A DNA stretch of 40,236 nucleotides, from UHGV virus genome UHGV-0191845. One strand, 5' to 3'. Numbering within the stretch: position 1 is the stretch's first letter; each line of letters begins with the position of its first letter. Positions 8,473-21,563 of the stretch are shown in pieces. Both the position numbers and the translations under genes were made by a program. This DNA is from a virus. The notes beneath the pieces were generated by a model. That model had not been told where the DNA came from. It did no database searches and saw nothing but the letters and a program-made list of their open reading frames with translations.

Positions 8473-9798
8473 ATGTACGACAAGGACAAGGATTATCAGG
8501 CGGAGATAAACAAGGCGGAGGCAAATGCAAACTTTTCCGCAGCGGCGGCAGCGGAAAAGGCGCGAAACGAAAAGATAGACGGCGAAGACTTGGATATGAA
8601 AAAGACATACAATTACACGGATAACCCGGCGGCGGTGATTCCGCAGAGCTATTCGGGGAAGCAGAGCCTTTCGAACGATTACATGCAGCAGGGCATGGAC
8701 GCATACAGACAGGGGAATTACAACGCATACGGCGCATTTACGGACATGCATAATCAAAAATCGAGAGAGACGGGCATTTCACAGCCGGTTTTCAATCCGC
8801 TGTTATACGATGATGTGAACGCACAGGCACGGCAGGATGCGCGCGGCGCGATTGCCGATTACGGGAAAAAGGGCTTTTCATACGACCCGAACAGTGATAT
8901 TCAGTACCAAACGATTAAGAAAATCAAAGAGGACGAGGCAAAGACGGCGGGGCGGAACATGATTGCGCAGCTTGCGGCGCAGAACGGCGGCGTTCTGCCG
9001 GCGGACATGGCGGGGCTTGTTGCCGGGACGCAGCAGAGCATTATAAATCAGGCGGACGCGCAGATTCCCGAGCTTTACAGGTTAGCCTATGAAAAATGGG
9101 CGGACAGCAGGAGCGATATGTATAACCAATACGGACTTTTAAACAATGAAAGCGAGTTCGGCCGCGAAAGCTGGCAGATGGGAAGTCAGAATTTCTGGGA
9201 CAATGTTGACCGCGAGCGCGAGGACGGGAAGTGGGAGAAAAGCTTTCTGCGCTCGAATTACGAAAACGACCGCGACTATAACAGGGGCGTGCTTGAAAGC
9301 GACAGGGATTATAACAGGGGCGTGGTTGAAAGCGACAGGAAATTTAATGAAGATAAGTTCCGCGACAGGCGCGACTATGACAGGGGCGTGCTTGAAAGCG
9401 ACAGGGATTATAAGCTGAATGAGGCGCAGGTGTACAATTCGTATTTAGGAACGTACATGAACAGCGGAAAATATTACAATCCGGGATCTGCAACGGGATA
9501 TGCAAACGCGGCATGGAACAAGATATACGGCGGAGCGCCCGACTATGCGGCGGAGGCGCTTTCGGGGCAGAGCGGCGCGGCAGGCGGCGGAGAAGCAAAG
9601 AGCAGTAAGAAAACATCAAAAAAAGCCGGCGGAAGTGAGAGCGCGGCGGCACTTCCGAAGAGCACGGAGCCGCAGAAGAAAGAACCGGAGAAGATTCACG
9701 TTGACGGAATCGGATACCTCACACCAAAGCAGGCGGAGGCTGCCGGGGTTGTTGCATACATTGACGGAAACGGACAGACGCGATACAGAAAGGGTTGA
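8473..9798 (+). CDS. Putative internal virion / ejection protein
   Basis: GGAGGGG RBS; FSYDPNSD.QYQ and IPELYRLAY motifs, DRDYNRGVLES repeats; precedes the giant protein. Confidence 0.6.
   Translation: MYDKDKDYQAEINKAEANANFSAAAAAEKARNEKIDGEDLDMKKTYNYTDNPAAVIPQSYSGKQSLSNDYMQQGMDAYRQGNYNAYGAFTDMHNQKSRETGISQPVFNPLLYDDVNAQARQDARGAIADYGKKGFSYDPNSDIQYQTIKKIKEDEAKTAGRNMIAQLAAQNGGVLPADMAGLVAGTQQSIINQADAQIPELYRLAYEKWADSRSDMYNQYGLLNNESEFGRESWQMGSQNFWDNVDREREDGKWEKSFLRSNYENDRDYNRGVLESDRDYNRGVVESDRKFNEDKFRDRRDYDRGVLESDRDYKLNEAQVYNSYLGTYMNSGKYYNPGSATGYANAAWNKIYGGAPDYAAEALSGQSGAAGGGEAKSSKKTSKKAGGSESAAALPKSTEPQKKEPEKIHVDGIGYLTPKQAEAAGVVAYIDGNGQTRYRKG
9268..9410 (+). repeat. 33-bp (11-aa DRDYNRGVLES) coding tandem repeat
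   Basis: GACAGGGATTATAACAGGGGCGTG(C/G)TTGAAAGC-type units, about 4 degenerate copies. Confidence 0.85.
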
Positions 9799-9804
9799 TG
9801 CGCC

Positions 9805-12800
9805 ATGGCGAAAAAGGACAAGGAAAAGAAAAAAGAACGGGAAACCGCGAAAAAGGAAGTCCGGCAATCGGCGGCAAAGGCAGCGGCAGAGGGGCTTTCG
9901 GAGCACATATTAAGCGGAAATGCGCTCAGAGAAAAGAAGAAAACAAGCGCCGCCGCGCCCGACCCGACATTCGGCACGGGAACGGTGCGCGTTAAGGCGA
10001 GCAAGGACGGCACAAAGGCAGAGCTTGACATGCCGAAAAAGGCTGTTTCCTCATGGGTGAAAAGCGACGCGGCAAAGCGCATGAGCAGCAGCGCCGAGAC
10101 GTTTGAAAAAGAAAGACAGCGCCAAAGAGCGCAGACAGATCAAAACAAAAGGCTGCGGCAGAGGGTATCCTCCGCCGCGGCAAGTGCCGCAAAAGAGGAC
10201 GCGGACAGTTTGCTTAAAACAAGCTTCAAGGACAGAATGAAGGGCACACAGGCGCGGAGAGTGCCCGACCCGACATTCGGCACGGATATGTTTTCGGACA
10301 AGATTTCGGGCAAGGGAATTAAAAATTATGTGCGCGGAACGGAGGAAAGAGAACAAAGGCGGAAAATCGCAAACAGTTGGGAAAACGAAAAGAAGAATCT
10401 TGAAGCGATGAAAAGCGGCAAGCTGCCCGATACGGAGATAAAAATTCCCGGTGTGAAAAGCATGCTGCCGAGATATATGGGGGAGAGGGTCGGCAAAGAA
10501 GCGTTTGACATTATCGACAAATATGCGACCGATGACGAAAGGCGCGCGCTGCGCAAGGTTTTGGAAACAAAGGGGCAGAACGAATACGGAAAGGCGCTGA
10601 GGGCGGCGCTTCCGGAAATAGGCGCGAGGGGAGCGAGAGAGGAATCAAGGATAAATTATGATTACGGAAAAGAGCACCCGATTCTCGCATCGGCGGTAAG
10701 TGTGCCGGCAAACATGGAGGCAGGCGTGCAGGCATCGCTTGACAACACCGGGCAACAGCTGAAAAAGCAGCTTACCATGATAGGGAAAACGCTCGGCACG
10801 AAAAAGATGAAGGAATATTTCGAGGCAAAGGAAAAGGACGAAAATGCAACCGCGGACGCGCTTATGGAGGGAAGCCTGTCAACCGATCGGCGCGGCGCGG
10901 ACGTTTACACACAGGCATTTCAGCGGCTGAGAAACGTGCAGGCAATGCGAGAGGGTGCGGGGAGTCATTTCGGAAAATTCAGAATGATATACGATATCGG
11001 AATGTCTGTGGTGGACTCGGTGTTTGCAACGGCTGTTGCCGGACCGGCTGCAACGGGAATACTTGCGGCGAATGCGGCGGCAAGCGGAATGATTGAAGCG
11101 GCGGAGCGCGGAGCAAGTGACGATCAGATCCTTGCAACAGGTGTTGCACAGGGAGTTGCGGAGGGACTGTTCGAGAAGATTTCGATTGACCATTTTATAA
11201 AAATAAAGGACGCGCCGGGGCTGCGCGGTGCGGTGAGACTTGCGCTTTCGGGCAACAAAAGGGGCGCGGCAAAGATTTTAAAAACAGCCGGACAAAACAC
11301 GCTGAAGCAAGCCGCCATAGAGGGAAGCGAGGAGGCGTTTACGGAGGTTGCGAACATCCTTACGGACGCGGCGATAATGGACGGCAGCAGCGAAACGCAG
11401 CTGCGCATCCGAGAATATGTGCATGGAGGCATGAGCGAGAAAGAGGCGCGGAAAAAGGCATACATCGACAACGTTGGACAGGTTGCGCTTTCCGCGGCAG
11501 GCGGCGCGCTGAGCGGCGCACTGATGGGCGGCTTCGGAGCGGCTATCGGAAACGGGGACGCAGCGCCGTACACAAACGAAAGCCTTGCCGGGCAGGAAAG
11601 CTTCTACAGAAGTGCAGGCGAGAGAGGGGCCTCCTTTGAGAATGCAAACGCTGCGGACAGTATGCAGGCTTTATCACCGGCGGAGAGAGAAAGCGCATAC
11701 AGGAGCGGACAGCAGGCTTTTGCGCAAAGCGTTACCGACACAATAAAAAAAGACCCCGGGGAGGGGGGCGTTCGGCTGGCGCTTCTGAGAAGCGGATTCA
11801 CCGGGGCGGACGACGCGGTTCTTGCGCGCGACATAATCGATTTTGCGCGCGGAAAAAAGCTGACGGACGGGCAGCGCCGCCGCATGAGCACAAACGACAG
11901 CGTTATGCGCGTGACGGAGGCGATTGCGGCATCGCCCGAAACGATGGAGGCAATCCGAAACAGATACGCGGAGGCGCAAAGCAGGGCGGAAACGGTTCGG
12001 GGAGAAAATAAAAAAAACAGCTCCAATACCGGTTCGGCACAAGAGAGTGCACTCCCCAATAGGCCGGAGCTGTCTTTCAATAACAGTACATCACAGGAAA
12101 ACGCGAATGTCAATGGGGAAAATTTGACGAACGAGGGAGGTTCGCAGCGGCTTGACCCGCGGACGCCGATTGAAGAGATACGGCGGACGATGGGAGAAGA
12201 CGCGGCGATGACGGAGCTTTTCAGGCGCGAAAGCGGACTTTTCCAAACAGCCGGAAGAAACGGCGACGATTTCGAAACGCTGTTTTCACAGGCGCCGCTG
12301 CGAATGGTTGACAGGCGAGCCGCGGAAACGGCATACCGCGCCGGGATAAAGGACAGGTTTTATGCTGCCGGAGAAAACGGCGAAAGCTTTGAAAGCGTTC
12401 GCGGATTCGCGCCCGAGAGAATGCAGGCGGCGGCAGCGGAAGCATATCAAAAGGGGCTTGACAGCCGCGCGAGGAACGCTGAACAGATATATTCCGGGGA
12501 AACGCGCGAGGGCGGCGGCTACGGCAGACCGGACACGAGCGGAAAGCAGCCGGGGCTTGTGTGGAACGAGGAGGCGCAGCAGCTCACGCCGCAGGAAAGA
12601 AAAAACATTGCCGCGCTTGCAAGAAAGCTCGGCAAAAGGGTTTATATTCAAACGGGGCTTGTGACGGACGACGGCAGACCGGCGCTCGGGAAGATAAACG
12701 ACGCGGCGATTTATGCCGACCCGAGCAGGGGAACGCTCGTGCAGGATATTATCGTGCATGAATTTTCACACAGAATGAAGCAGCTTTCGCCGGATTCATG

Positions 12801-15800
12801 GCAGAAATACGCCGATTATGCGATAAACGACCTTAAGAAAACCGGGAGATATGACGGGATATACAGCGAGTTTACAAAGCATTATGACGGCATGGCGGAG
12901 AGCGAGATTCATGAGGAAATGGCGGCGGACTATGCATACAAAATGTTTGATTCGGAGGAAAGTCTGACGGAGCTGATAAGGCAGGACAAGCCGCTTGCGG
13001 AGAAAATCAAAGACGTTTGGTTTGCGCTGCTTGAAAAGCTCGGCCGCGATGTGACATTGAAGCGCGCAAAAAACATGTGGAAAATGTGCCTGACGGAAGC
13101 CGGAAAGACGGCGGAGAGGGGCGGTAATCAGAGCGGAACAAAATATAAAATTGCGTACACAACCGATAATCAGCCTGTTGTGGTAGTTGAGGAGGATTTC
13201 CTTAAGGGGATAGATCCAAAAGACCACATAAAGGAAACAAAGAAAAAACTGGCTGAATTTTCGCCGGGGATTCAAATAAACGGCAGATTTATTGCGGTAA
13301 ATAAGACCACAAGGGGCGAATTTACTTTTTCTAAGAACAGCCGACATTTGAAGGGAATTTCACCCGATGTACATTCTGATAAGATGAGAATTGCGGAAAA
13401 TATTGATGATGCGGTGAAGGCTTCAACCGACTATGTTGGAGAAGCGCCAAAGCATGAAAGAAAGGATAATATCAAGGAGTTTGCTCGTGGAAGTCTGCTT
13501 GTTCAAGTAGGAAAGAATCAGTACGATGCAGATGTTGTTGTCGGTTGGACGGGAGAACAGATGGTTTTATATGATATTGTCAAAATGAAAAGAACATCGT
13601 TTGACATAAAAAAGGAAGCACCCTCGTCAAAAACCGGTACAACGCAGAATACTACGCTTCCCAGTAGTGGAGGAATGCTTCCTAATGATAGTGTAACACA
13701 GCCGGGCGGAGTTGTCAAGGGGGGAAATTCGTCGAATCAAGGAAAAAATTCCGGCGGAACGAAATATATGCTGAATCCCAATTTCAACAAGGCGGTTGAC
13801 AACTGGTATAAAAATTTAAAACAAAAAACAGGGGTTACTTTGCTTGTAGGAGAAACATCTGAGGCGTTAATGAATATCGGGGTAAAAAAACAGAAAATAT
13901 ACTGGGATACAACAAAAATTAACATGACATTAAACAAACACACCGATATAAATATTGATGTGATAAAATCAGTGCCGTACTTGCTGGAAAACCCGGTATT
14001 GATAACAAGAACAAAAGATCCGAAAAACAGGCAGGGAAATAACCGGATTTCGCTTTACGGAGATTTATACAACCGCGATGGATTGCCGGTTGCAGTGTTC
14101 CTTGAGCTTGAGCCTGACAACGGGAAGTTTATATTAGATGAAATAAAGATAGTAAGTACATACGCAAAAAGCGATGCAAGCAATCCCTCGAGCATGGAGG
14201 GCACACAGAGGCAATTGAACAGCCAGCAAATTATAAGTAACAACAAAAAAAGAACCGCAGGTTGGCTGGCACGTACCGGGCTCCAATTGCCTTTCCTCCC
14301 AGCTGATAGCGGTTCTGAATACAGAATACCATACAAAGACAAGATTGTCAAGGGGGAAAATTCGTCGAAATCGGAAAAAAATATGCTGCCGTTCGAGGGA
14401 GGACAGAGAGAATTTACACGGACGGAGGAGCGGCACGCAGGGCAGCGCGCATACAAGCCGACGGATACGATGACGGCGCGCGAATGGCAGACGGAAAGGC
14501 GGAACGGAAACACGGTTGACGCGGCAAGCCTTAGGGAGATTGCGGACATTGTGAGAAACGATTTCGGAATACCGGTTTCGAAAGAACATTTCGAAAATGA
14601 AAATGTGACGGGAATTTTCAACGAGATGCCCGAGACCATTCGGACGGCGGTTACAAACGACATTGTGACCGTGGCGCACGAGGTGGGGCATTTGCTTGAC
14701 AGGAAGCTCGGGCTTGAGGATTCGCCGCATTTGCAGCAAGCCTTTGACATGATTGACCGCGATTTTGCAATGAATTACAGCGGAAAAGAAATAAAGGGCG
14801 AGGCTGTGAGCGAATTTATCAGAACATACATAAAAAACAAGGATGAGGCAAAAGCCGCCGCACCCGATTTCTATGAGGATTTCGAAAGCCGGATAAAGGG
14901 AACGGAATACGAAAAGCCGCTTGCAAGGCTTGCCGACAGCGTGAACGCATATCTTTCAGCCGGGGCAACGGAGAGGATAAACCTTGCGCTTGCGCCGGAG
15001 GAGAGCAAAAAAACGGCGCTGAAGCGTGCCGCCGAGAACAAGGCGAAGATGGGAGAGGTGTTTGCACGGCTTCAGAACGACTGGGTTGACAGCTTTTACG
15101 GAATAAAGAGAACGGAAACGCTTTTACAGGTGAAAGAAAAGGGGAAATACAGTCCATACGTTCTGGCGACAAACAGCAGAAACGCGGCTTCAAAGGCGGC
15201 GTATATTCTTACGCAGAAATTTGTTGACCATGAGGGAAACGAAATCGGAGATTCATTCATAGACTGCCTGAATCCACTCAATTCGAAAAACAGAAAGCAG
15301 AGAGAAAGTAATCTTTCGGAGCTGAACAGATACCTTATTTTAAAGCACGCGCTTGAATGGATTGAGCCGCAAAACGGCGCAAAGCAGAAAAGGGTGTTTG
15401 CAGATCCGACGCTTGAAAACCCCGATGTTATCCGTTCGGAGATTGCAAGGATTGAGCAGAATGTTCCGCAGGTGCGCGAGGCAGCCGAAAGGATTTACGA
15501 ATACCAAAGAAATCTGATGCAGATTTACGGCGTTGAATCGGGAGGAATTTCGCAGCAGACGGCGGACGATCTGAGAAAAAAATACCCGTGCTACGTTCCT
15601 TTCATAAGACAGTCCGAAAAAAAGAAAACCATGAGAGCGCGCAGCACGATTGCAAATCAGAGAGCGCCGGTTATGCACGCTTTCGGCGGCGGCGAGCTGA
15701 TTGTGAATCCGCTTGAGAGCATTATAGGGAAAACGGAAAGCTATGTTAAATTCGCGGCGAGAAATTCGGCAATGCGCGCGCTGACGGACATTGCGGACAG

Positions 15801-18324
15801 CGTTCCCGGCAGCGGCTTTGTGATCGAAAAGCTGGGCGGAGACATGCTGCGGCATGTGCAGACGACCGACAATGCGGACGCAAGGCTTTCGGAAGCAAAA
15901 AACAGGCTGAACACCGCGGAGGGGATTCCGCAGGAATTTAACGGAATCGAGGACGTGGGAAGCTGGGAAAGCCTTATAAAGCGCGGAACGGAATACGTCA
16001 GCGTTATGAAGGACGGAAAAAAGCAGTATTATCAGGTGCATGACAAGGAGCTTTTAAGATCGATTGCGGACATGAGCCCGAATCAGCTAAACGGTTTTCT
16101 TAAATTCAGCAGAATGATACTCAATATAAGAAAGATTTTCATCACGCAGATGAATTATTTGTTTTCCACAACGAACCCGGCGCGCGATATTCAGACAGCA
16201 TGGCACAACATGGGGATTAACAATCCGGCGCAGTTTGTAGGAGAATATTTCTCGGCGCTGGCGAGCGTTATAAAAAAGGACGAATCATACAGGCGCTGGT
16301 GCGCGATGGGCGGCGGACAGAGCAGCGAGCTTTCGGCAAACATCGATGAAATTTCGCGCTCAATGTCAAAGGCGATGAACGGGCGGCTAAGGTACGCTAT
16401 AGAAAACCCGACAAAGATATTTTCCGAAATATTCGGGGCGGTTGCAGACCTGAACGACCTCATGGAATCGGCGCCGCGGCTGATGGCATTTAAAAATGAA
16501 ATGAAAAGAAGCGGAGACGTTCAGCAGGCGATATACGAGGCGGACGATGTGACAACGAATTTCAAGCGCATGGGAACAAAGGGGCGCGTTGCAAACAGCA
16601 TGTTCATGTTCGCAAATGCGCAGATACAGGGGTTTGACAGAGGAATCCGCAGCTTTACTGACGCATCGGCAGGGGAGCGCACGGCGCGCATTGCAAAGTA
16701 TGTGATAGGCGCAATGCTCATGGCGGCGCTGAAGCAGTGGTGGAACAGAGAAAAGGACGAGGACGGTTATAACAAGCTTTCAAACTACATGAAGAACGCG
16801 CACACGATTATCGCACTCGGGAAAGGAAGCTTTCTAAGGATTCCGAACGCGAGGGAGCAATCGCTTGCATCGGCAGCGCTGGACAGGGCGATGGATTATT
16901 TCAAGGGGGACAAGGAAGCTTTTGACGGATTCATCGGTTTTGCGGTTGACAACCTTATGCCGCCGTTTATCCCCGTGCCGACCGACATAAACGGAAAGAG
17001 CGCAACCGACATTTTCACCGACTGCATACTGGAAGCGGCGCGGAACACAATGTTCGGAACGGCTACGGACTTTATGGCGAACAAGAATTTCACGGGCAGC
17101 CCGATTGTGCCGGAGGCATACAGCGATCTGCCGCCGGAGCAGCAATACAACGAGAGAACGACCAAGCCGGCAATATGGCTCGGAAAGAAGCTGAAGGATT
17201 CTCCGATGAGGCTTGATTATATCATCAACAACAATCTCGACGTTTTCGGAAATATCAACAAGGCGCTGCTTCCGAACGATGACGCGCAGCGCGACAAAAC
17301 GCTCGGCTTCAAAAACCGCTGGACCGCGGACGCGTACTATTCGACCGATATTTTGAACAGGGAATACGAGGCAAAGGACGCCGCCGACATGGAGCTGAAG
17401 CGCAGCAACACGCCGAAAAATGCGGAGGACTATTACGGAAAGCTTGAAAAGACGACATATATTTCACAGATGAACGGGGCAATAAATGAAATGCCGCAGG
17501 ACGAAAAGCGCGGCGCGAGAAAGCAGCTGCTTGACGTTGTGACGGGGTGGAGTGCAGCGGACGCGGAGGTTTCGGACGAGCTTCGCAGGCTGTACAAAAA
17601 GACGGGCGAGAACCGATTCTGGCAAACACCCGACAGGACTTTCAATGTAAACGGCGAGGAAATCAGCCTTTCTCCGAAAAAGTACGAAAGGTTTGCGCTT
17701 GAAGCGAGAGAGAATTTTGACAAAAACGCAGCGGAGCTTATAAATTCCAAGCTTTACAAATCGCTCAATGACGCGGAAAAGGCGGAGGCGATGCAGAGCG
17801 TGCGCGAATACACGGTTGCGGCAGGGCGAAAGGACGCCGACAGGAATTATTCGCTCGAAAAGTGGCAGGTAGGCGTATACAGCGGAGATATCAGCTTAAA
17901 TGACAGCATATCCGAAAAGGTTACGAAGAAAAGAACCGAGGCGGCAAAGGAACGCAAGCGCGCCGAAATCAGCATAGACACGAAGAACGCGACCGGCTAC
18001 ACAAAGGAACAGGCGGAGAGGCTTACATCGGAAGCGGCGCAGTATTACGCGAACAAGGAACAGGATAAAAATTATGTCGGCACAAATACTTATGCGCATA
18101 TGGAAAAATACGAAAACACGCTTAAAAAATACATGCCGCTGAATGATTATCTGCAAATCCGCACGGGATATTACGCATACAAGGAAAGCATCGGCAAGCG
18201 CGACAAGAGCAGTCTTAAAAAACAGGAGCTGACGGCATATATAAACAGCTGCACGGATTCGCGCGAGGTTCGGCGCGCGCTTTTTGACGCACTTCCGCAC
18301 GGCGGCAGCAAGAATCCTTATTAA
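9805..18324 (+). CDS. Giant polyvalent virion protein (2839 aa): two zincin HExxH domains, LPD3-like and MuF-C-like (BECR-fold) modules, LPD38-like C-terminal region
   Basis: IVHEFSH (~12751-12771) and VAHEVGH (~14671-14691); AT-richer modules at ~13141-13600 and ~13762-14300; FLRIP...NKNFTGSPIVP...SPMRLDYII resembles LPD38. Recognised by motif only. Confidence 0.75.
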   Translation: MAKKDKEKKKERETAKKEVRQSAAKAAAEGLSEHILSGNALREKKKTSAAAPDPTFGTGTVRVKASKDGTKAELDMPKKAVSSWVKSDAAKRMSSSAETFEKERQRQRAQTDQNKRLRQRVSSAAASAAKEDADSLLKTSFKDRMKGTQARRVPDPTFGTDMFSDKISGKGIKNYVRGTEEREQRRKIANSWENEKKNLEAMKSGKLPDTEIKIPGVKSMLPRYMGERVGKEAFDIIDKYATDDERRALRKVLETKGQNEYGKALRAALPEIGARGAREESRINYDYGKEHPILASAVSVPANMEAGVQASLDNTGQQLKKQLTMIGKTLGTKKMKEYFEAKEKDENATADALMEGSLSTDRRGADVYTQAFQRLRNVQAMREGAGSHFGKFRMIYDIGMSVVDSVFATAVAGPAATGILAANAAASGMIEAAERGASDDQILATGVAQGVAEGLFEKISIDHFIKIKDAPGLRGAVRLALSGNKRGAAKILKTAGQNTLKQAAIEGSEEAFTEVANILTDAAIMDGSSETQLRIREYVHGGMSEKEARKKAYIDNVGQVALSAAGGALSGALMGGFGAAIGNGDAAPYTNESLAGQESFYRSAGERGASFENANAADSMQALSPAERESAYRSGQQAFAQSVTDTIKKDPGEGGVRLALLRSGFTGADDAVLARDIIDFARGKKLTDGQRRRMSTNDSVMRVTEAIAASPETMEAIRNRYAEAQSRAETVRGENKKNSSNTGSAQESALPNRPELSFNNSTSQENANVNGENLTNEGGSQRLDPRTPIEEIRRTMGEDAAMTELFRRESGLFQTAGRNGDDFETLFSQAPLRMVDRRAAETAYRAGIKDRFYAAGENGESFESVRGFAPERMQAAAAEAYQKGLDSRARNAEQIYSGETREGGGYGRPDTSGKQPGLVWNEEAQQLTPQERKNIAALARKLGKRVYIQTGLVTDDGRPALGKINDAAIYADPSRGTLVQDIIVHEFSHRMKQLSPDSWQKYADYAINDLKKTGRYDGIYSEFTKHYDGMAESEIHEEMAADYAYKMFDSEESLTELIRQDKPLAEKIKDVWFALLEKLGRDVTLKRAKNMWKMCLTEAGKTAERGGNQSGTKYKIAYTTDNQPVVVVEEDFLKGIDPKDHIKETKKKLAEFSPGIQINGRFIAVNKTTRGEFTFSKNSRHLKGISPDVHSDKMRIAENIDDAVKASTDYVGEAPKHERKDNIKEFARGSLLVQVGKNQYDADVVVGWTGEQMVLYDIVKMKRTSFDIKKEAPSSKTGTTQNTTLPSSGGMLPNDSVTQPGGVVKGGNSSNQGKNSGGTKYMLNPNFNKAVDNWYKNLKQKTGVTLLVGETSEALMNIGVKKQKIYWDTTKINMTLNKHTDINIDVIKSVPYLLENPVLITRTKDPKNRQGNNRISLYGDLYNRDGLPVAVFLELEPDNGKFILDEIKIVSTYAKSDASNPSSMEGTQRQLNSQQIISNNKKRTAGWLARTGLQLPFLPADSGSEYRIPYKDKIVKGENSSKSEKNMLPFEGGQREFTRTEERHAGQRAYKPTDTMTAREWQTERRNGNTVDAASLREIADIVRNDFGIPVSKEHFENENVTGIFNEMPETIRTAVTNDIVTVAHEVGHLLDRKLGLEDSPHLQQAFDMIDRDFAMNYSGKEIKGEAVSEFIRTYIKNKDEAKAAAPDFYEDFESRIKGTEYEKPLARLADSVNAYLSAGATERINLALAPEESKKTALKRAAENKAKMGEVFARLQNDWVDSFYGIKRTETLLQVKEKGKYSPYVLATNSRNAASKAAYILTQKFVDHEGNEIGDSFIDCLNPLNSKNRKQRESNLSELNRYLILKHALEWIEPQNGAKQKRVFADPTLENPDVIRSEIARIEQNVPQVREAAERIYEYQRNLMQIYGVESGGISQQTADDLRKKYPCYVPFIRQSEKKKTMRARSTIANQRAPVMHAFGGGELIVNPLESIIGKTESYVKFAARNSAMRALTDIADSVPGSGFVIEKLGGDMLRHVQTTDNADARLSEAKNRLNTAEGIPQEFNGIEDVGSWESLIKRGTEYVSVMKDGKKQYYQVHDKELLRSIADMSPNQLNGFLKFSRMILNIRKIFITQMNYLFSTTNPARDIQTAWHNMGINNPAQFVGEYFSALASVIKKDESYRRWCAMGGGQSSELSANIDEISRSMSKAMNGRLRYAIENPTKIFSEIFGAVADLNDLMESAPRLMAFKNEMKRSGDVQQAIYEADDVTTNFKRMGTKGRVANSMFMFANAQIQGFDRGIRSFTDASAGERTARIAKYVIGAMLMAALKQWWNREKDEDGYNKLSNYMKNAHTIIALGKGSFLRIPNAREQSLASAALDRAMDYFKGDKEAFDGFIGFAVDNLMPPFIPVPTDINGKSATDIFTDCILEAARNTMFGTATDFMANKNFTGSPIVPEAYSDLPPEQQYNERTTKPAIWLGKKLKDSPMRLDYIINNNLDVFGNINKALLPNDDAQRDKTLGFKNRWTADAYYSTDILNREYEAKDAADMELKRSNTPKNAEDYYGKLEKTTYISQMNGAINEMPQDEKRGARKQLLDVVTGWSAADAEVSDELRRLYKKTGENRFWQTPDRTFNVNGEEISLSPKKYERFALEARENFDKNAAELINSKLYKSLNDAEKAEAMQSVREYTVAAGRKDADRNYSLEKWQVGVYSGDISLNDSISEKVTKKRTEAAKERKRAEISIDTKNATGYTKEQAERLTSEAAQYYANKEQDKNYVGTNTYAHMEKYENTLKKYMPLNDYLQIRTGYYAYKESIGKRDKSSLKKQELTAYINSCTDSREVRRALFDALPHGGSKNPY
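12010..12078 (-). ncRNA. Candidate antisense hairpin sRNA 3 (orphan) inside the giant ORF
   Basis: Minus-strand TTGACA (12113-12108), 17 bp, TGTACT (12090-12085); RNA GAAAGACAGCUCC...GGAGCUGU with a U8 run. Confidence 0.55.
13608..13683 (-). ncRNA. Candidate antisense hairpin sRNA 1 at the end of the LPD3-like module
   Basis: Minus-strand TTGACA (13718-13713), 17 bp, TG-n-TACACT (13695-13690); +1 at 13683 begins AGGAAGCAUUCCUC, which pairs with 3' GAGGGUGCUUCCU, followed by a U run. Confidence 0.7.
14245..14316 (-). ncRNA. Candidate antisense hairpin sRNA 2 at the end of the MuF-C-like module
   Basis: Minus-strand TTGACA (14351-14346), 17 bp, TG-n-TATTCT (14328-14323); +1 at 14316 begins AGAACCGC, which pairs with 3' GCGGUUCU, followed by a U run. 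Confidence 0.7.
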
Positions 18325-18325
18325 G

Positions 18326-18354
18326 TTTACAGCATTTTAATTTGATGTTAAAAT
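18326..18354 (+). promoter_or_regulatory. Putative lysis-cassette promoter
   Basis: TTTACA, 17 bp, TG-n-TAAAAT upstream of the holin gene. Confidence 0.65.
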
Positions 18355-18377
18355 TAATTCAAGGGAGTGATTGAGTC

Positions 18378-18569
18378 ATGAAGGAATTAAGAAAGCTTAT
18401 CGATGTGAAAAGCATTGTAACGCTTCTTTTGGTGTTTACACTGGTGTACATTGTGGTAACCGGAAAAACGCTTGACGAAAAGGTGTTTCTGCTTTTCAGC
18501 AACACTGTCACGATGATAGTGACATATTTTTTCACGAAGAAAAAGACCGGCGGTGACGGCCATGAGTGA
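18378..18569 (+). CDS. Holin-like two-TM membrane protein
   Basis: 63 aa, two hydrophobic helices, KLIDVKSIVTL and YFFTKK motifs; lysis cassette. Confidence 0.7.
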   Translation: MKELRKLIDVKSIVTLLLVFTLVYIVVTGKTLDEKVFLLFSNTVTMIVTYFFTKKKTGGDGHE

Positions 18570-18810
18570 AACGATTATAACAGCGATAATCACGGGCGGA
18601 CTGGCGCTGATTGGCAGCCTTGCGGCGAACAACAAAACAAAGGCGCTGATTCTGTACCGGCTCGAACAGATTGAGCAGAAGCAGGACAAGCACAATGCAG
18701 TAATCGAGCGGACGTATCACATCGAAAGCATACTTGCGGAATACGGCAACAGGATAAAAGTGTCGGAGCACCGTATCGAGGATTTGGAAAAGGAGAGTCA
18801 CCATGGATAA
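18562..18810 (+). CDS. Holin-like / lysis-associated single-TM coiled-coil protein
   Basis: MSETIITAIITGGLALIG...YRLEQIEQKQDKHNAVIERTY, a common type in Firmicutes lysis cassettes. Confidence 0.7.
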   Translation: MSETIITAIITGGLALIGSLAANNKTKALILYRLEQIEQKQDKHNAVIERTYHIESILAEYGNRIKVSEHRIEDLEKESHHG

Positions 18811-20164
18811 ATTCACGCTTCCGAAGGAGCGGCTTCCGCGCCCGTTCTCGCAGAATATCTACAAGGGCGGCAAGTTATATTCCTCTGTCGGTTCGTGCGT
18901 TGCGTGCACGTTTACGCGCATTTTGGAGGTTATCAATTACCTTAAAACCGATGCATATGTAAATCTGTCAGTCGGGTATATGTACGGGCGGCACAACCGA
19001 AAGGACAAGCAGGGCGGCGGCATGAATGAAAGGCTCGTTCTCGATGAGCTTGTGCAGTCGGGCACCGTTCCCGAAAGTATGTGCGCCGATTACTGCGAGT
19101 TTCCCGAAATAAAGAATATACTTGAAAGCCGCGCAGACCTTGCAGAGCTTGACGAAGCGGCAAGGGAATATAGAATAAACGGGTGGACGGACATCAGCGG
19201 CAGCGGCTTCAAGGCGCGTTTTGAGTGTATTAAAAAATATCTGACCGTGTACGGCTTGCCGCTTGCAGGCAGAACACGCAAATGCGGAGAAAATCACGAA
19301 TGCCTGATAGTAGGCTTTGACGGTGATTATATCCTGTGGCTTGACCATGACGGAACGGATAAGATACACAGCTCGAAATACGACAAATTTACGGCGGCAT
19401 TTTTTATTGACGGAGGCACGGGAGAAATGGATAATTTCAGAATATTTACATCAGCGGAGCTTAAGGCGTGGCTTGCAGCGCAGAGCGTGAAAAGAAAAAT
19501 AACAACAGTGCAGCTGCATCACACCTACGGCCCGTCATACAAGGACTTTAACGGGAGCAATCATGCAAAGCTTCAAAGCGGCATGAAAAGCTATCATGTG
19601 AAATCGCGCGGATTTTCGGACATAGCGCAGCACTTCACAATCTTTCCCGATGGCAAAATAATGACGGGGCGCAGCCTTGACCGCGCGGCGGCAGGGATAA
19701 TCGGGTGCAACGCGAGCGGCATATGCATTGAGTGCCTCGGAAATTTTGACACAGGCGGCGATACAATGACCGCGGCGCAAAAGGCGGCAATCGCGAAAAC
19801 GGTGAAAATTCTGCTTGACAGGTTTCATCTTACCGCCGATAACGTGACATACCATGCATGGTGGACGGCAAAAGGGCGGCAGCTCGGCGACTACATCAAA
19901 GGAAAGTCCGCAAAAACATGTCCCGGCACAAGCTTTTTCGGGGGCAACACACGGGCGGCATATGAAAAAAATCTCCGCCCGATGATAGAATCAAAGGGGG
20001 AGACAGTTTTGAAAAAGGTTGAAAGCATTAACGACATCGTTTGGGAGCTCACAAACGCCGGAATCGTCACGGACGGCAAGCTGTGGATGAAGAAATGCGC
20101 CGAGGATAAAAATGTTTATTGGCTTTGTTACAAGATGGCGAATAAATTGAGAGGAACGCTGTAG
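18803..20164 (+). CDS. Endolysin: papain-like (C1) N-terminal domain, Amidase_2 domain and short C-terminal domain
   Basis: GSCVAC...LSVGYMY...HECLIVGFD; amidase VQLHHT, DIAQHFTIFPDG, ICIECLGNFD, YH...KTCPG. Confidence 0.85.
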   Translation: MDKFTLPKERLPRPFSQNIYKGGKLYSSVGSCVACTFTRILEVINYLKTDAYVNLSVGYMYGRHNRKDKQGGGMNERLVLDELVQSGTVPESMCADYCEFPEIKNILESRADLAELDEAAREYRINGWTDISGSGFKARFECIKKYLTVYGLPLAGRTRKCGENHECLIVGFDGDYILWLDHDGTDKIHSSKYDKFTAAFFIDGGTGEMDNFRIFTSAELKAWLAAQSVKRKITTVQLHHTYGPSYKDFNGSNHAKLQSGMKSYHVKSRGFSDIAQHFTIFPDGKIMTGRSLDRAAAGIIGCNASGICIECLGNFDTGGDTMTAAQKAAIAKTVKILLDRFHLTADNVTYHAWWTAKGRQLGDYIKGKSAKTCPGTSFFGGNTRAAYEKNLRPMIESKGETVLKKVESINDIVWELTNAGIVTDGKLWMKKCAEDKNVYWLCYKMANKLRGTL

Positions 20165-20210
20165 CGTTTTAGTCAAAATTTAGTCAAACAGCGAATTTTA
20201 ACGAAAAACA

Positions 20211-20253
20211 AAAACCGCATTATATACCGTAAATGGCTATATAATGCGGTTTT
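20211..20253. terminator. Bidirectional terminator hairpin
   Basis: Perfect 16-bp stem AAAACCGCATTATATA / TATATAATGCGGTTTT between the endolysin and the tRNA 3' end. Confidence 0.85.
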
Positions 20254-20257
20254 CGAC

Positions 20258-20303
20258 TGGTGCGCCATCAGGGACTCGAACCCTGGACACCCTGATTAAG
20301 AGT
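20258..20303 (-). other. attP core: 3' half of tRNA-Lys(CTT)
   Basis: Minus strand reads ACTCTTAATCAGGGTGTCCAGGGTTCGAGTCCCTGATGGCGCACCA (anticodon loop CT-CTT-AA, T-arm GGTTCGAGTCC, CCA end); no 5' half present. Confidence 0.9.
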
Positions 20304-20468
20304 TATAGAATTTCGGGGTGGGGTAAATGCCGAAAAAATGGCGGTTTTGCCTATTTTTCGGGAGGTTGTGGGTAACACACAGTACATTTCGGTGCTGTGA
20401 TTTTATACTGATTATTTAGTCAAAATCGGTATTATTTAGTCAAAATTTAGTCAGAAAATCAAAGGGAA

Positions 20469-21563
20469 TCAGCCGAGAAATGCATTAAGTTTTTCCTCGG
20501 CGTCATCAATTTTTTTATCGGAGAGGTGGGTATATATATCCATTGTCATTTGAATTGACGAATGACCGAGGAGGTATTGTGCGGTTTTGACATCGATTCC
20601 GGCTTCGAAAAGTGTTGTTGCGTATGTATGGCGGAGAAGGTGCGGAGTTACATCATCGCCGACAGGGGAAAATTCCTGCACCTTTTTTATGATTCCGTTC
20701 CAAAACTTTGTGAATGATGATTTCGTCATAAGCGATGAAGAATCTTTCTGTTTCGGGAAAACGACATCGCCGGGAAGAGAGAGAAGATAATCATTTATAA
20801 CGGAGGCTGCTGCGGACGGCAGCGGCACGGAACGGTTACCGGCTTCAGATTTCGGGCTGTGCTTCAGCTCAGATTCGCCGGAATCCTTTAAAATGAGATT
20901 CTTTGATACATTCACCTTGCCGTCTGCGAAATCGTCTTTAAAAAGGGCGAGAGCTTCACCGCGGCGCAGACCGCAATATAACAAAAGATAAATATAGGAT
21001 TTTTCCTTTAAAGAGAGCGGTGCGGAGACGAAAGCCTTTTTTTCGTCATCCGTGAGCGCTCTTTTTTTCTTGCGCTCTTTATTTTGCGGCAGGCGAACGG
21101 TTTGAGCTGCGCTGCGCGGAACGATATCGCTTTCAGCCGCGGCGGACAGGAGCTGCTTTAAAACAAGCAGAACCAGCTCTGCGGTGCGGCGCTTCCCGGA
21201 AGACAGGAGAGAATTGACGAGCTGCTGAACATGGAGCTTTTTTATATCCTTGACTTTCACCCTGCCGAGAGACGGAAGAATGTGGACGCGGAGCGCGTCC
21301 GAGTAAGACCGGCGGGTGTTATAGGAAACGTTCGCCTTATAGACGGAGATCCATTTTTCAGACCATTCGGCAAGCGTTATCCCATCGTCAAAGCAATATG
21401 TTCCGTTGCCGAGCGAGAGACGGATCTGTTCCGCTTTGCGGATTGTTTCGGCTTGAGTTTTTCCGTACACGCTTTTATATTTCGGTTTCCCGTTGTCGCC
21501 GTAACCGACAAGGACATTTATGAGATAACGCCCGTCGGCGCGTTTTTTTATTTTCATATGCAA
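20469..21563 (-). CDS. int: Tyrosine integrase
   Basis: N-terminal arm-binding domain (KKRADGRY...YKSVYGKT); catalytic GLRRGEALAL, KSEAGNR, HLLRHTYAT, LGHSSIQMTMDIYTH. Confidence 0.97.
   Translation of the reverse strand: MHMKIKKRADGRYLINVLVGYGDNGKPKYKSVYGKTQAETIRKAEQIRLSLGNGTYCFDDGITLAEWSEKWISVYKANVSYNTRRSYSDALRVHILPSLGRVKVKDIKKLHVQQLVNSLLSSGKRRTAELVLLVLKQLLSAAAESDIVPRSAAQTVRLPQNKERKKKRALTDDEKKAFVSAPLSLKEKSYIYLLLYCGLRRGEALALFKDDFADGKVNVSKNLILKDSGESELKHSPKSEAGNRSVPLPSAAASVINDYLLSLPGDVVFPKQKDSSSLMTKSSFTKFWNGIIKKVQEFSPVGDDVTPHLLRHTYATTLFEAGIDVKTAQYLLGHSSIQMTMDIYTHLSDKKIDDAEEKLNAFLG

Follow-up and report, generated by a model that had tools for sequence, protein, structure and literature searches.

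Polyvalent proteins of phages carry predicted ribonucleases (RNases) without a visible immunity protein, and how they can be produced safely had been an open question. The question arises in a 40,236-nt stretch of viral DNA (UHGV virus genome UHGV-0191845, hereafter the window), which represents a temperate phage and encodes an integrase, a terminase, a portal protein, a capsid protein and an amidase. Its structural module contains, 3' of the capsid and internal-virion genes and 5' of the endolysin gene, a plus-strand gene (9805-18324) for a polyvalent protein of 2839 amino acids, and within this gene lie three minus-strand units, each of which comprises a promoter and a predicted hairpin RNA. 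Sequence comparisons establish the architecture of such units, their tie to MuF-C, LPD3 and PBECR3 domains, their exchange as cassettes, a constraint on the loop of the MuF-C-type RNAs and the existence of free-standing copies, and both the RNA family and its link to the domains are well supported. We propose that the units are small-RNA genes placed antisense inside a protein gene and that the ~70-nt hairpin RNA probably binds and neutralises the adjacent predicted BECR-type nuclease domain as an antitoxin.

The units had been reported in a preliminary description of the window and are present at 13608-13718 (unit A), 14245-14351 (unit B) and 12010-12113 (unit C). All three consist of TTGACA, a 17-nt spacer, a TGn extended -10 element, a 6-nt gap and a +1 nucleotide that opens a closing stem. 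In unit A, the -35 element (13718-13713) and the -10 element TACACT (13695-13690) precede a predicted 71-nt hairpin RNA that begins at 13683 and is followed by a U run. Unit B, with its -35 element at 14351-14346 and TATTCT at 14328-14323, is predicted to produce a 66-nt RNA from 14316, again with a U run, and unit C, with its -35 element at 12113-12108 and TGTACT at 12090-12085, an RNA from 12078. When G-U pairs are counted, the closing stems contain 11 (A), 8 (B) and 15 (C) pairs and close 66-71 nt after the +1, directly before the U run. The RNAs are almost fully paired rods, with no unpaired variable guide segment evident; folding z-scores are -5.4 for units A and C and only -1.5 for unit B. 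With loops longer than 8 nt, the units escape a standard terminator scan. As initially described, the plus frame of 2839 codons is uninterrupted across all three units. An extended -10 element had been attributed to each of them; in unit C this element has no A at its second position, fails a standard promoter scan and is likely weak in the window allele. The statement that the unit sequences are otherwise unrelated proved incorrect: a 49-nt anchor (13688-13736, with copies at 12083-12131 and 14321-14369) that spans the promoter and ~20 nt beyond the -35 element is common to all three at 65-73% identity and is likely a recombination point.

To score units, we used a script that required TTGACA, a spacer of 16-18 nt, a -10 element, a closing stem of at least 7 pairs and a U run. 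Across the 40 kb, perfect TTGACA elements with a -10 element occur three times on the minus strand, in each case with a stem and in each case within one of the three units, and four times on the plus strand, in no case with a stem. When one mismatch was allowed, a stem accompanied 3 of 14 minus-strand sites and 1 of 18 plus-strand sites. Neither 200 synonymous-codon shuffles of the reading frame, a control set by the preliminary description, nor 200 codon-order shuffles yielded a unit. The filter was designed after the units were known, and therefore the tests on homologues described below are the independent ones, which carry the weight.

Units A and B follow domains that are candidate RNases. 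Pfam searches of the 2839-residue protein detected LPD3 (residues 1145-1247), MuF_C (1374-1483) and LPD38 (2320-2478). The MuF-C domain (13780-14229, plus strand), which belongs to the PBECR group, matches Pfam MuF_C above the cut-off (E 6.4e-8). In an alignment of MuF-C domains, H54, S126 and T127 are invariant; in a structural model, the His lies where helix 44-53 ends and the other two residues fall within strand 123-127. A helix His combined with a strand Ser/Thr has been described for the predicted active members (Iyer 2017, PMC5512222), and the window domain retains both. The model (pLDDT 84) has its best fold matches in BrnT (Z 6.5, root-mean-square deviation 2.9, 73 residues aligned) and CdiA-CT (Z 6.4, deviation 2.7, 91 aligned), and its 19 top rows are all structures of toxins from toxin-antitoxin (TA) or contact-dependent inhibition systems. 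The LPD3-family domain (13147-13596, plus strand), which has an invariant His in its alignment and a predicted BECR-like fold, matches Pfam LPD3 below the cut-off (E 1.3e-5). Its model (pLDDT 93) gave a weak best match to CdiA-CT 6cp9 (Z 5.0, deviation 3.6, 96 aligned), and the other top rows, BrnT and ParE/RelE-type toxins, likewise have Z values of at most 5.0. A Foldseek search, which had been suggested as a check on both domains, returned no match at E 0.001 for either model. The initial designation of both domains as predicted BECR RNases stands for MuF-C; LPD3 is listed by Iyer 2017 (PMC5512222) apart from the PBECR domains, and its BECR status therefore depends on the weak fold match. 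In the mechanism proposed below, both domains would cut RNA.

We determined how regularly units accompany these domains with a protein-first search, in which the profile ended before the unit. It gave 46 MuF-C rows, two of which were dropped because of short flanks; one of the remaining 44 is a duplicate. An antisense promoter followed the domain in all 44 rows and a strict full unit in 36, so that the proposed survey of homologous domains bore out the motif. Far fewer were found in the controls, which yielded promoters and full units, respectively, in 5 and 0 of 44 cases on the sense strand, 3 and 0 of 39 upstream, and 5 and 1 of 41 located 500 nt further downstream. Among LPD3 matches, 15 of 17 had the promoter and 13 of 17 the full unit. 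A Pfam scan of long open reading frames, which covered 25 of 31 and considered the best stretch per family only, found a unit behind both PBECR3 domains and no unit within 100 residues after 24 non-BECR domains (7 ART-PolyVal, 3 LPD38, 3 LPD23, 4 DUF6782 and 7 others), and no sense-strand site in the scanned frames had a stem. The reverse test, which began from pattern hits in IMG/VR, placed MuF-C upstream in 17 of 24 hits with a stem versus 3 of 96 without one; 40 of these loci were short. A peptide proxy for the unit was present behind 195 of 255 domains versus 52 of 230 upstream controls. No unit was found in phage Mu gp30, a single weak case that the MuF-C profile did not match and that has been called inactive (Iyer 2017, PMC5512222). 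Single-protein scans of IMG/VR with the two window domains found no relative, and a looser pattern of promoter plus motif was abandoned, as most of its hits (93 of 120) were ordinary gene starts.

Allele comparisons revealed that domain and unit move together. The LPD3-family domain and unit A form a cassette (13133-13767) with a 14-nt direct repeat at either end (13133-13146 and 13754-13767), the two copies of which differ at one position. We compared four alleles of the giant gene, namely those of the window, genome G001 and loci L360 and L361. G001 and L361 lack window positions 13148-13753, which contain the LPD3 domain and unit A, and possess a single copy of the 14-nt repeat; both encode a different LPD3 domain directly before unit C, whose -10 element is TATACT or TACACT. 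In L360, a third domain with a new RNA replaces both the LPD3 domain with unit A and the MuF-C domain with unit B, and unit C lacks a domain and has an intact -10 element, TATGCT. These four alleles indicate that domains arrive with their own RNA and that an RNA can outlast a lost domain. On this comparison, unit C of the window is the leftover of a deleted LPD3 domain, a point that goes beyond the preliminary description, as do the free-standing copies and the spread across phyla and conjugative elements reported below. We discarded the general rule that domain loss leads to promoter decay, as the window has TGTACT yet the domain-less unit of L360 keeps TATGCT. In G001, L360, L361 and contigs of the public runs X2 and X4, the anchor is joined to other RNAs or other downstream sequence; the run contigs, which are probably DNA, served for allele junctions alone. 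Genome G002 had no match to the giant gene. Taken together, the allele swaps and the domain associations support the earlier proposal that each exchangeable module carries its own antisense small-RNA gene.

A further locus, L046, has an in-frame MuF-C-type RNA without a domain directly behind an LPD3 unit, at residue 2123 of a 2971-residue open reading frame.

The RNAs behind MuF-C domains contain a common apical hairpin with a 7-nt loop of the AAUUGGA type. Unit B belongs to this widespread family, and its apical hairpin GGC-AAUUGGA-GCC (14279-14291, minus strand) reads GLQLP on the plus strand. In the protein-first set, the overlapped Gln codon is CAA in 27 of 27 cases and the Leu codon TTG in 30 of 30, compared with 117 of 216 and 102 of 529 elsewhere in the same domains. 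Stem variants alter the peptide (VQFP, LQLS, LQLL, LHLL, YQLP) yet keep the pairing, and 28 of 28 aligned RNAs pair at all three apical stem positions, each with two or three pair types. The loop is fixed across domains that are only 14-25% identical. For the closing stem, 128 motif-selected units have a mean of 7.7 Watson-Crick pairs between cognate halves versus 3.1 between swapped halves, with folding energies of -28.1 and -17.7 kcal/mol, respectively. By sequence comparison, the MuF-C apical hairpin is constrained as RNA and not as protein. The apical stem exceeds shuffles by only one pair beyond its core, and the loop differs in several MuF-C-type subfamilies. Since the closing stems were out of register, a consensus fold computed from an alignment yielded just the 3-bp apical stem. 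Unit A has no sequence relative among the 258 units collected. In a search of window positions 9000-21000, of 20 homologous loci and of 10 orphan loci, no unit matched an Rfam covariance model at gathering score, and a long hairpin in L205 produced microRNA hits that stayed below threshold.

Anticodon mimicry by the loop was considered and rejected. An anticodon loop is expected to carry U at position 33. This U is absent, and the middle triplet of the loop is simply the complement of the overlapped codon. The loop may resemble tRNA D-loops.

We next assessed the range of the family. The strict RNA pattern occurs in an estimated ~550 stretches of GTDB genomes, and the first 80 loci are mostly from Bacillota, with others from Akkermansia, Aeromonas, Lonepinella, Collinsella, Acidobacteria and further groups; the family also occurs in gut Clostridia, Pasteurellaceae and Shiga toxin (Stx) phages. 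Among 128 distinct units, MuF-C lies within 130 residues in 76, spacing differences are multiples of three in 114, and the frame antisense to the RNA is closed in 35. The MuF-C profile matches 6939 protein clusters at 50% identity, and MuF_C was found in 2 of 301 genomes of a phylum-wide sample. A MuF-C query matched 187 phage records, nearly all of which are Stx-type E. coli phages; VT2-Sakai and phi24B contain a unit with the same hairpin. In Pseudomonas phage LKA5, a unit recognised by eye lies behind an LPD3-like domain, with a divergent -35 element and a folding energy of -43.9 kcal/mol.

The E. coli homologue allowed us to compare a predicted promoter with published transcript data. ECs1242, the 8.4-kb counterpart of the giant gene in E. 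coli O157, has four transcription start sites in Dataset S1 of Sy et al. 2020 (PMC7547250), and the most enriched of the four is antisense, at 1301472(-), with a factor of 24.07. This start, determined by differential RNA sequencing, is exactly the predicted +1, and the sequence upstream of it ends in the -35 element of the unit, 17 nt, the -10 element and the 6-nt gap. Coincidence is unlikely because just two antisense starts are listed for ECs1242. These data indicate that the promoter of a homologous unit is active in E. coli O157 culture carrying the prophage, which substantiates for one homologue the expression from a housekeeping-type promoter that had been postulated for the window. Tree et al. 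2014 (PMC4104026) place ECs1242 17th among the coding sequences bound by Hfq. The same study lists, in five datasets, a minus-strand Hfq peak, EcOnc36 (1301433-1301515), in prophage Sp5 of E. coli O157, whose target is recorded as unknown (PMC7873438). Of the predicted RNA, EcOnc36 covers only the first 40 nt, and it extends 43 nt above the start, whereas three other minus-strand Hfq peaks end 4-10 nt above their own starts. EcOnc36 is likely the RNA of the homologous unit; as it reaches too far above the start, we do not claim identity.

Copies of the RNA genes also occur apart from any domain. A set of 21 motif units in 19 loci has a closed antisense frame and no domain within 900 nt. Free units often lie between housekeeping genes (rsgA, metK, ispD/F-rpoB, rpsI), and some are in phage replication regions. 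One genome, G771, contains eight tandem units with varied loops and one more nearby, and other free arrays contain two or three units. An integrative and conjugative element (ICE) in genome G772 has two MuF-C polyvalent genes, both with an embedded unit of their own, and four free units upstream of them. Nine of the ten genomes with free units have no MuF-C match. Of the 97 units classed as free, among which are some chance hairpins and units whose domain is stopped or frameshifted, 36 have an embedded unit as a match at 75-98%; L251 matches L357, for example, at 94%.

Several of these loci display further features. Beside the unit array of G771 (L356:7188-8850, G771:C9) are five promoter-led arrays of 34-54-nt repeats with no adjoining toxin gene; they had no Rfam hit, resemble type III antitoxins by eye and are possibly orphan type III antitoxins in an RNA-antidote island. 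A clustered regularly interspaced short palindromic repeat (CRISPR) array with csn2 lies 3 kb from them. The ICE locus L357 (G772:C4:52000-72000) encodes a TraG-like ATPase, a topoisomerase and a methylase-helicase polyvalent protein, with a promoter-led repeat RNA near locus position 165. In Acholeplasmatales (L273, L224/L225), the RNA gene is located past the stop codon of a stand-alone MuF-C gene, possibly the ancestral non-overlapping layout; L273 is one of the 19 free-unit loci, and its MuF-C gene ends before the neighbouring unit. In an Oscillospiraceae genome (L211-L212), a toxin-deaminase gene pair lies between two almost identical free units, and five IMG/VR loci contain free units whose RNA is closely related. 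A 20-nt pattern derived from a single orphan RNA type had no match in IMG/VR.

How might such RNAs act? In the mechanism that we propose, the RNA gene, which sits right behind the predicted nuclease domain and is exchanged with it, would supply the antidote to that domain. While the late gene is silent in a lysogen or ICE carrier, a housekeeping-type promoter would maintain the supply of the RNA, whose apical loop may occupy the RNA-binding cleft of the domain as a decoy. The RNA would thereby protect the producer during assembly and might also shield carriers when a related element injects the same domain. Orphan copies may be gathered by hosts and elements as an antidote library, much like orphan immunity genes. 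We favour an antidote that acts on the protein because of the constitutive-type promoter, the single RNA per domain, the loop fixed within a family and the orphan collections. An extension of this reading, which we consider possible without calling it probable, is RNA-based immunity to injected effectors, in which elements across phyla would pair BECR cassettes with antisense antidotes and bacteria would harvest the 110-nt genes into loop-variant arrays as acquired protection.

A number of observations weigh against the antidote reading. The fold matches are middling (Z 6.5 for MuF-C and 5.0 for LPD3) and fold alone gives no function, and the toxicity, nuclease activity and RNA binding of both domains are predictions. 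The association is weaker in the viral LPD3 subfamily (promoter in 6 of 10, full unit in 4 of 10), and the sole PBECR5 domain seen has no unit behind it. The counts given above come from related genomes and do not represent independent events, and the genomes without MuF-C are mostly incomplete metagenome-assembled genomes. The loop of unit B is altered in G001 although its domain is 67% identical, and two LPD3 domains that are 55% identical carry RNAs that cannot be aligned (units A and C). LPD3-type RNAs share architecture and no common sequence motif, and therefore a constraint on these RNAs is evident only as the closing stem. Finally, Hfq-bound reads of ECs1242 (7,138-73,833 antisense versus 0-3,342 sense; PMC4104026) fit base-pairing RNAs equally.

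Antisense RNAs silence toxin genes in cis in the type I TA pairs of Firmicutes. By analogy, the unit RNA could pair with the mRNA past the domain, or convergent transcription could block leaky late expression, an account that fits the convergent geometry at the 3' end of the domain, the stand-alone MuF-C genes with an RNA just past the stop codon (L273), the excess of antisense over sense Hfq reads on ECs1242 in five of five samples (PMC4104026) and the LPD3-type RNAs without a common motif. We nevertheless consider it unlikely: perfect complementarity requires no conserved loop, yet the loop persists across highly divergent domains, free arrays lack a cis target where the genome does not contain the gene, an mRNA cut downstream of the domain would leave domain translation intact, and the RNAs are rods. 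The preliminary description had allowed for either neutralisation of the RNase or silencing of its mRNA; neutralisation gains from the family-specific loop and the free arrays, neither of which silencing explains well. About equally unlikely is that the RNA joins the domain in a ribonucleoprotein, be it as a substrate or as a cofactor or specificity factor, and that this complex works inside the recipient on behalf of the phage or ICE. One RNA per domain, a family-specific loop and co-exchange suit any obligatory ribonucleoprotein, and RNA targets beyond tRNA and rRNA, including CRISPR RNAs, have been proposed for these domains (Iyer 2017, PMC5512222). However, a housekeeping promoter that fires in the lysogenic state suits protection better, as does retention of the RNA without the domain, in host chromosomes and in tandem loop-variant sets, and no variable guide segment is left unpaired.

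Two other explanations detach the units from nuclease function. They could be ordinary trans-acting small RNAs, or mere recombination anchors, that hitchhike at module borders, since the shared anchor marks crossover points and the Hfq peak EcOnc36 overlaps the E. coli unit. We regard this as improbable in view of the restriction of units to positions behind BECR-type domains, with none behind the 24 others, and of an RNA family that tracks the domain family from Clostridia to E. coli; recombination, moreover, does not require covariation in the RNA body. That the units are a by-product of conserved linker peptides (KK ... LQLP ... SI ... VN) is largely refuted and has very little probability left. 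The promoter-frame peptide does follow 195 of 255 domains, and an LQLP-like peptide follows 101 of 255, but none of 200 synonymous shuffles produced a unit, synonymous codon choice is fixed, copies persist with the frame closed (35 of 128) and one promoter, that in ECs1242, has been mapped experimentally.

We compared the proposed antidotes with known systems. Type III TA systems have an RNA as antitoxin and, in most cases, an endoribonuclease as toxin (PMC12283969). Like toxIN, cptIN and tenpIN, the units combine a predicted ribonuclease with a small structured RNA from a sigma-70-type promoter. Unlike the type III antitoxins, which are tandem pseudoknot-forming repeats upstream of the toxin in one operon, they are single rod hairpins of 66-71 nt, antisense, inside an open reading frame and downstream of a BECR-type domain. 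The type III gene order was not observed, since none of 39 upstream controls and none of 44 sense-strand controls contained a unit, nor was a toxin of the ToxN, CptN or TenpN family, as Pfam gives MuF_C and LPD3 and the best folds are BECR-type toxins. The type III working principle, inhibition of the toxin protein by RNA, is suggested for the units by the conserved loop and the orphan arrays. With type I TA systems they share a convergent antisense RNA with its own promoter and terminator on the 3' side of a toxic, or here putatively toxic, coding region. Type I toxins, as in txpA/ratA and bsrG/SR4, are small stand-alone peptides. The partner here is instead a 150-residue globular domain in a protein of 2839 residues, and the RNA is marked by a conserved loop and the existence of orphan copies; complementarity to the mRNA follows from position for embedded units and is inapplicable to free-standing ones.

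Arrays of orphan immunity genes are known from polymorphic toxin systems. The units resemble these systems also in their exchangeable cassettes with a cognate partner right behind the toxin (BECR-Tox2/Imm2, DUF6883/DUF4926; bioRxiv 10.64898/2026.08.28.747851) and differ in that the partner is an RNA on the opposite strand, and therefore the cassette can sit in the middle of a fused protein. In the text consulted, that 2026 BECR survey mentions protein immunity alone. The giant protein itself matches the polyvalent proteins of Iyer 2017 (PMC5512222) in its LPD3, MuF-C and LPD38 domains, two HExxH motifs, structural context and mosaic exchange; the main text of that work contains "antisense", "noncoding" and "small RNA" 0 times, and its PBECR section proposes no RNA partner. 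The report of EcOnc36 (PMC4104026), a peak that overlaps the homologous unit, makes no link to MuF-C or to a family in the part consulted. Our literature search found no description of the arrangement, although subscription papers, preprint supplements and the FTP files of Iyer could hold a prior mention; the RNA family is thus without an Rfam match and the arrangement undescribed in the literature searched. An overlapping RNA gene for each cassette would answer how such proteins are produced safely and explain how modules are shuffled within one long frame, and the free-standing arrays would amount to acquired defence or superinfection exclusion of a new kind. The reading also gives the orphan EcOnc36 peak of E. 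coli O157 a candidate function and offers a direct assay for MuF-C and LPD3 domains.

The product of the giant gene matches phrog_616, a profile of 2793 positions (E 2e-21), and is likely an ejection protein; it is a multidomain protein with LPD and PBECR domains encoded among structural genes, as polyvalent proteins are defined. ECs1242 is required for plaque formation and lysogenisation (PMC5155283), and proteomics has detected the phi24B counterpart, a protein with LPD38 and MuF-C that is proposed to be ejected, in virions (bioRxiv 10.64898/2026.04.10.717836). The LPD38 domain of the window (16762-17238, plus strand) has no unit 3' of it. Two HExxH motifs were read in the protein sequence. 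A recurring (G/T)-K/R-Y/F-S/K/M peptide at module starts coincides with the direct repeat at 13133-13146 and could be a cleavage site for the HExxH peptidase-like domains. After the anchor, at 14370-14390 and 13740-13770, a purine-rich stretch is accompanied by an in-frame ATG, and many homologues have a Met a few residues past the unit, which makes internal translation starts for the next module possible. The N-terminal part of the gene contains an exact 23-nt direct repeat (9957-9979 and 10263-10285), and a plus-strand extended -10 promoter-like site (18326-18354) lies right after its stop codon, before the lysis genes.

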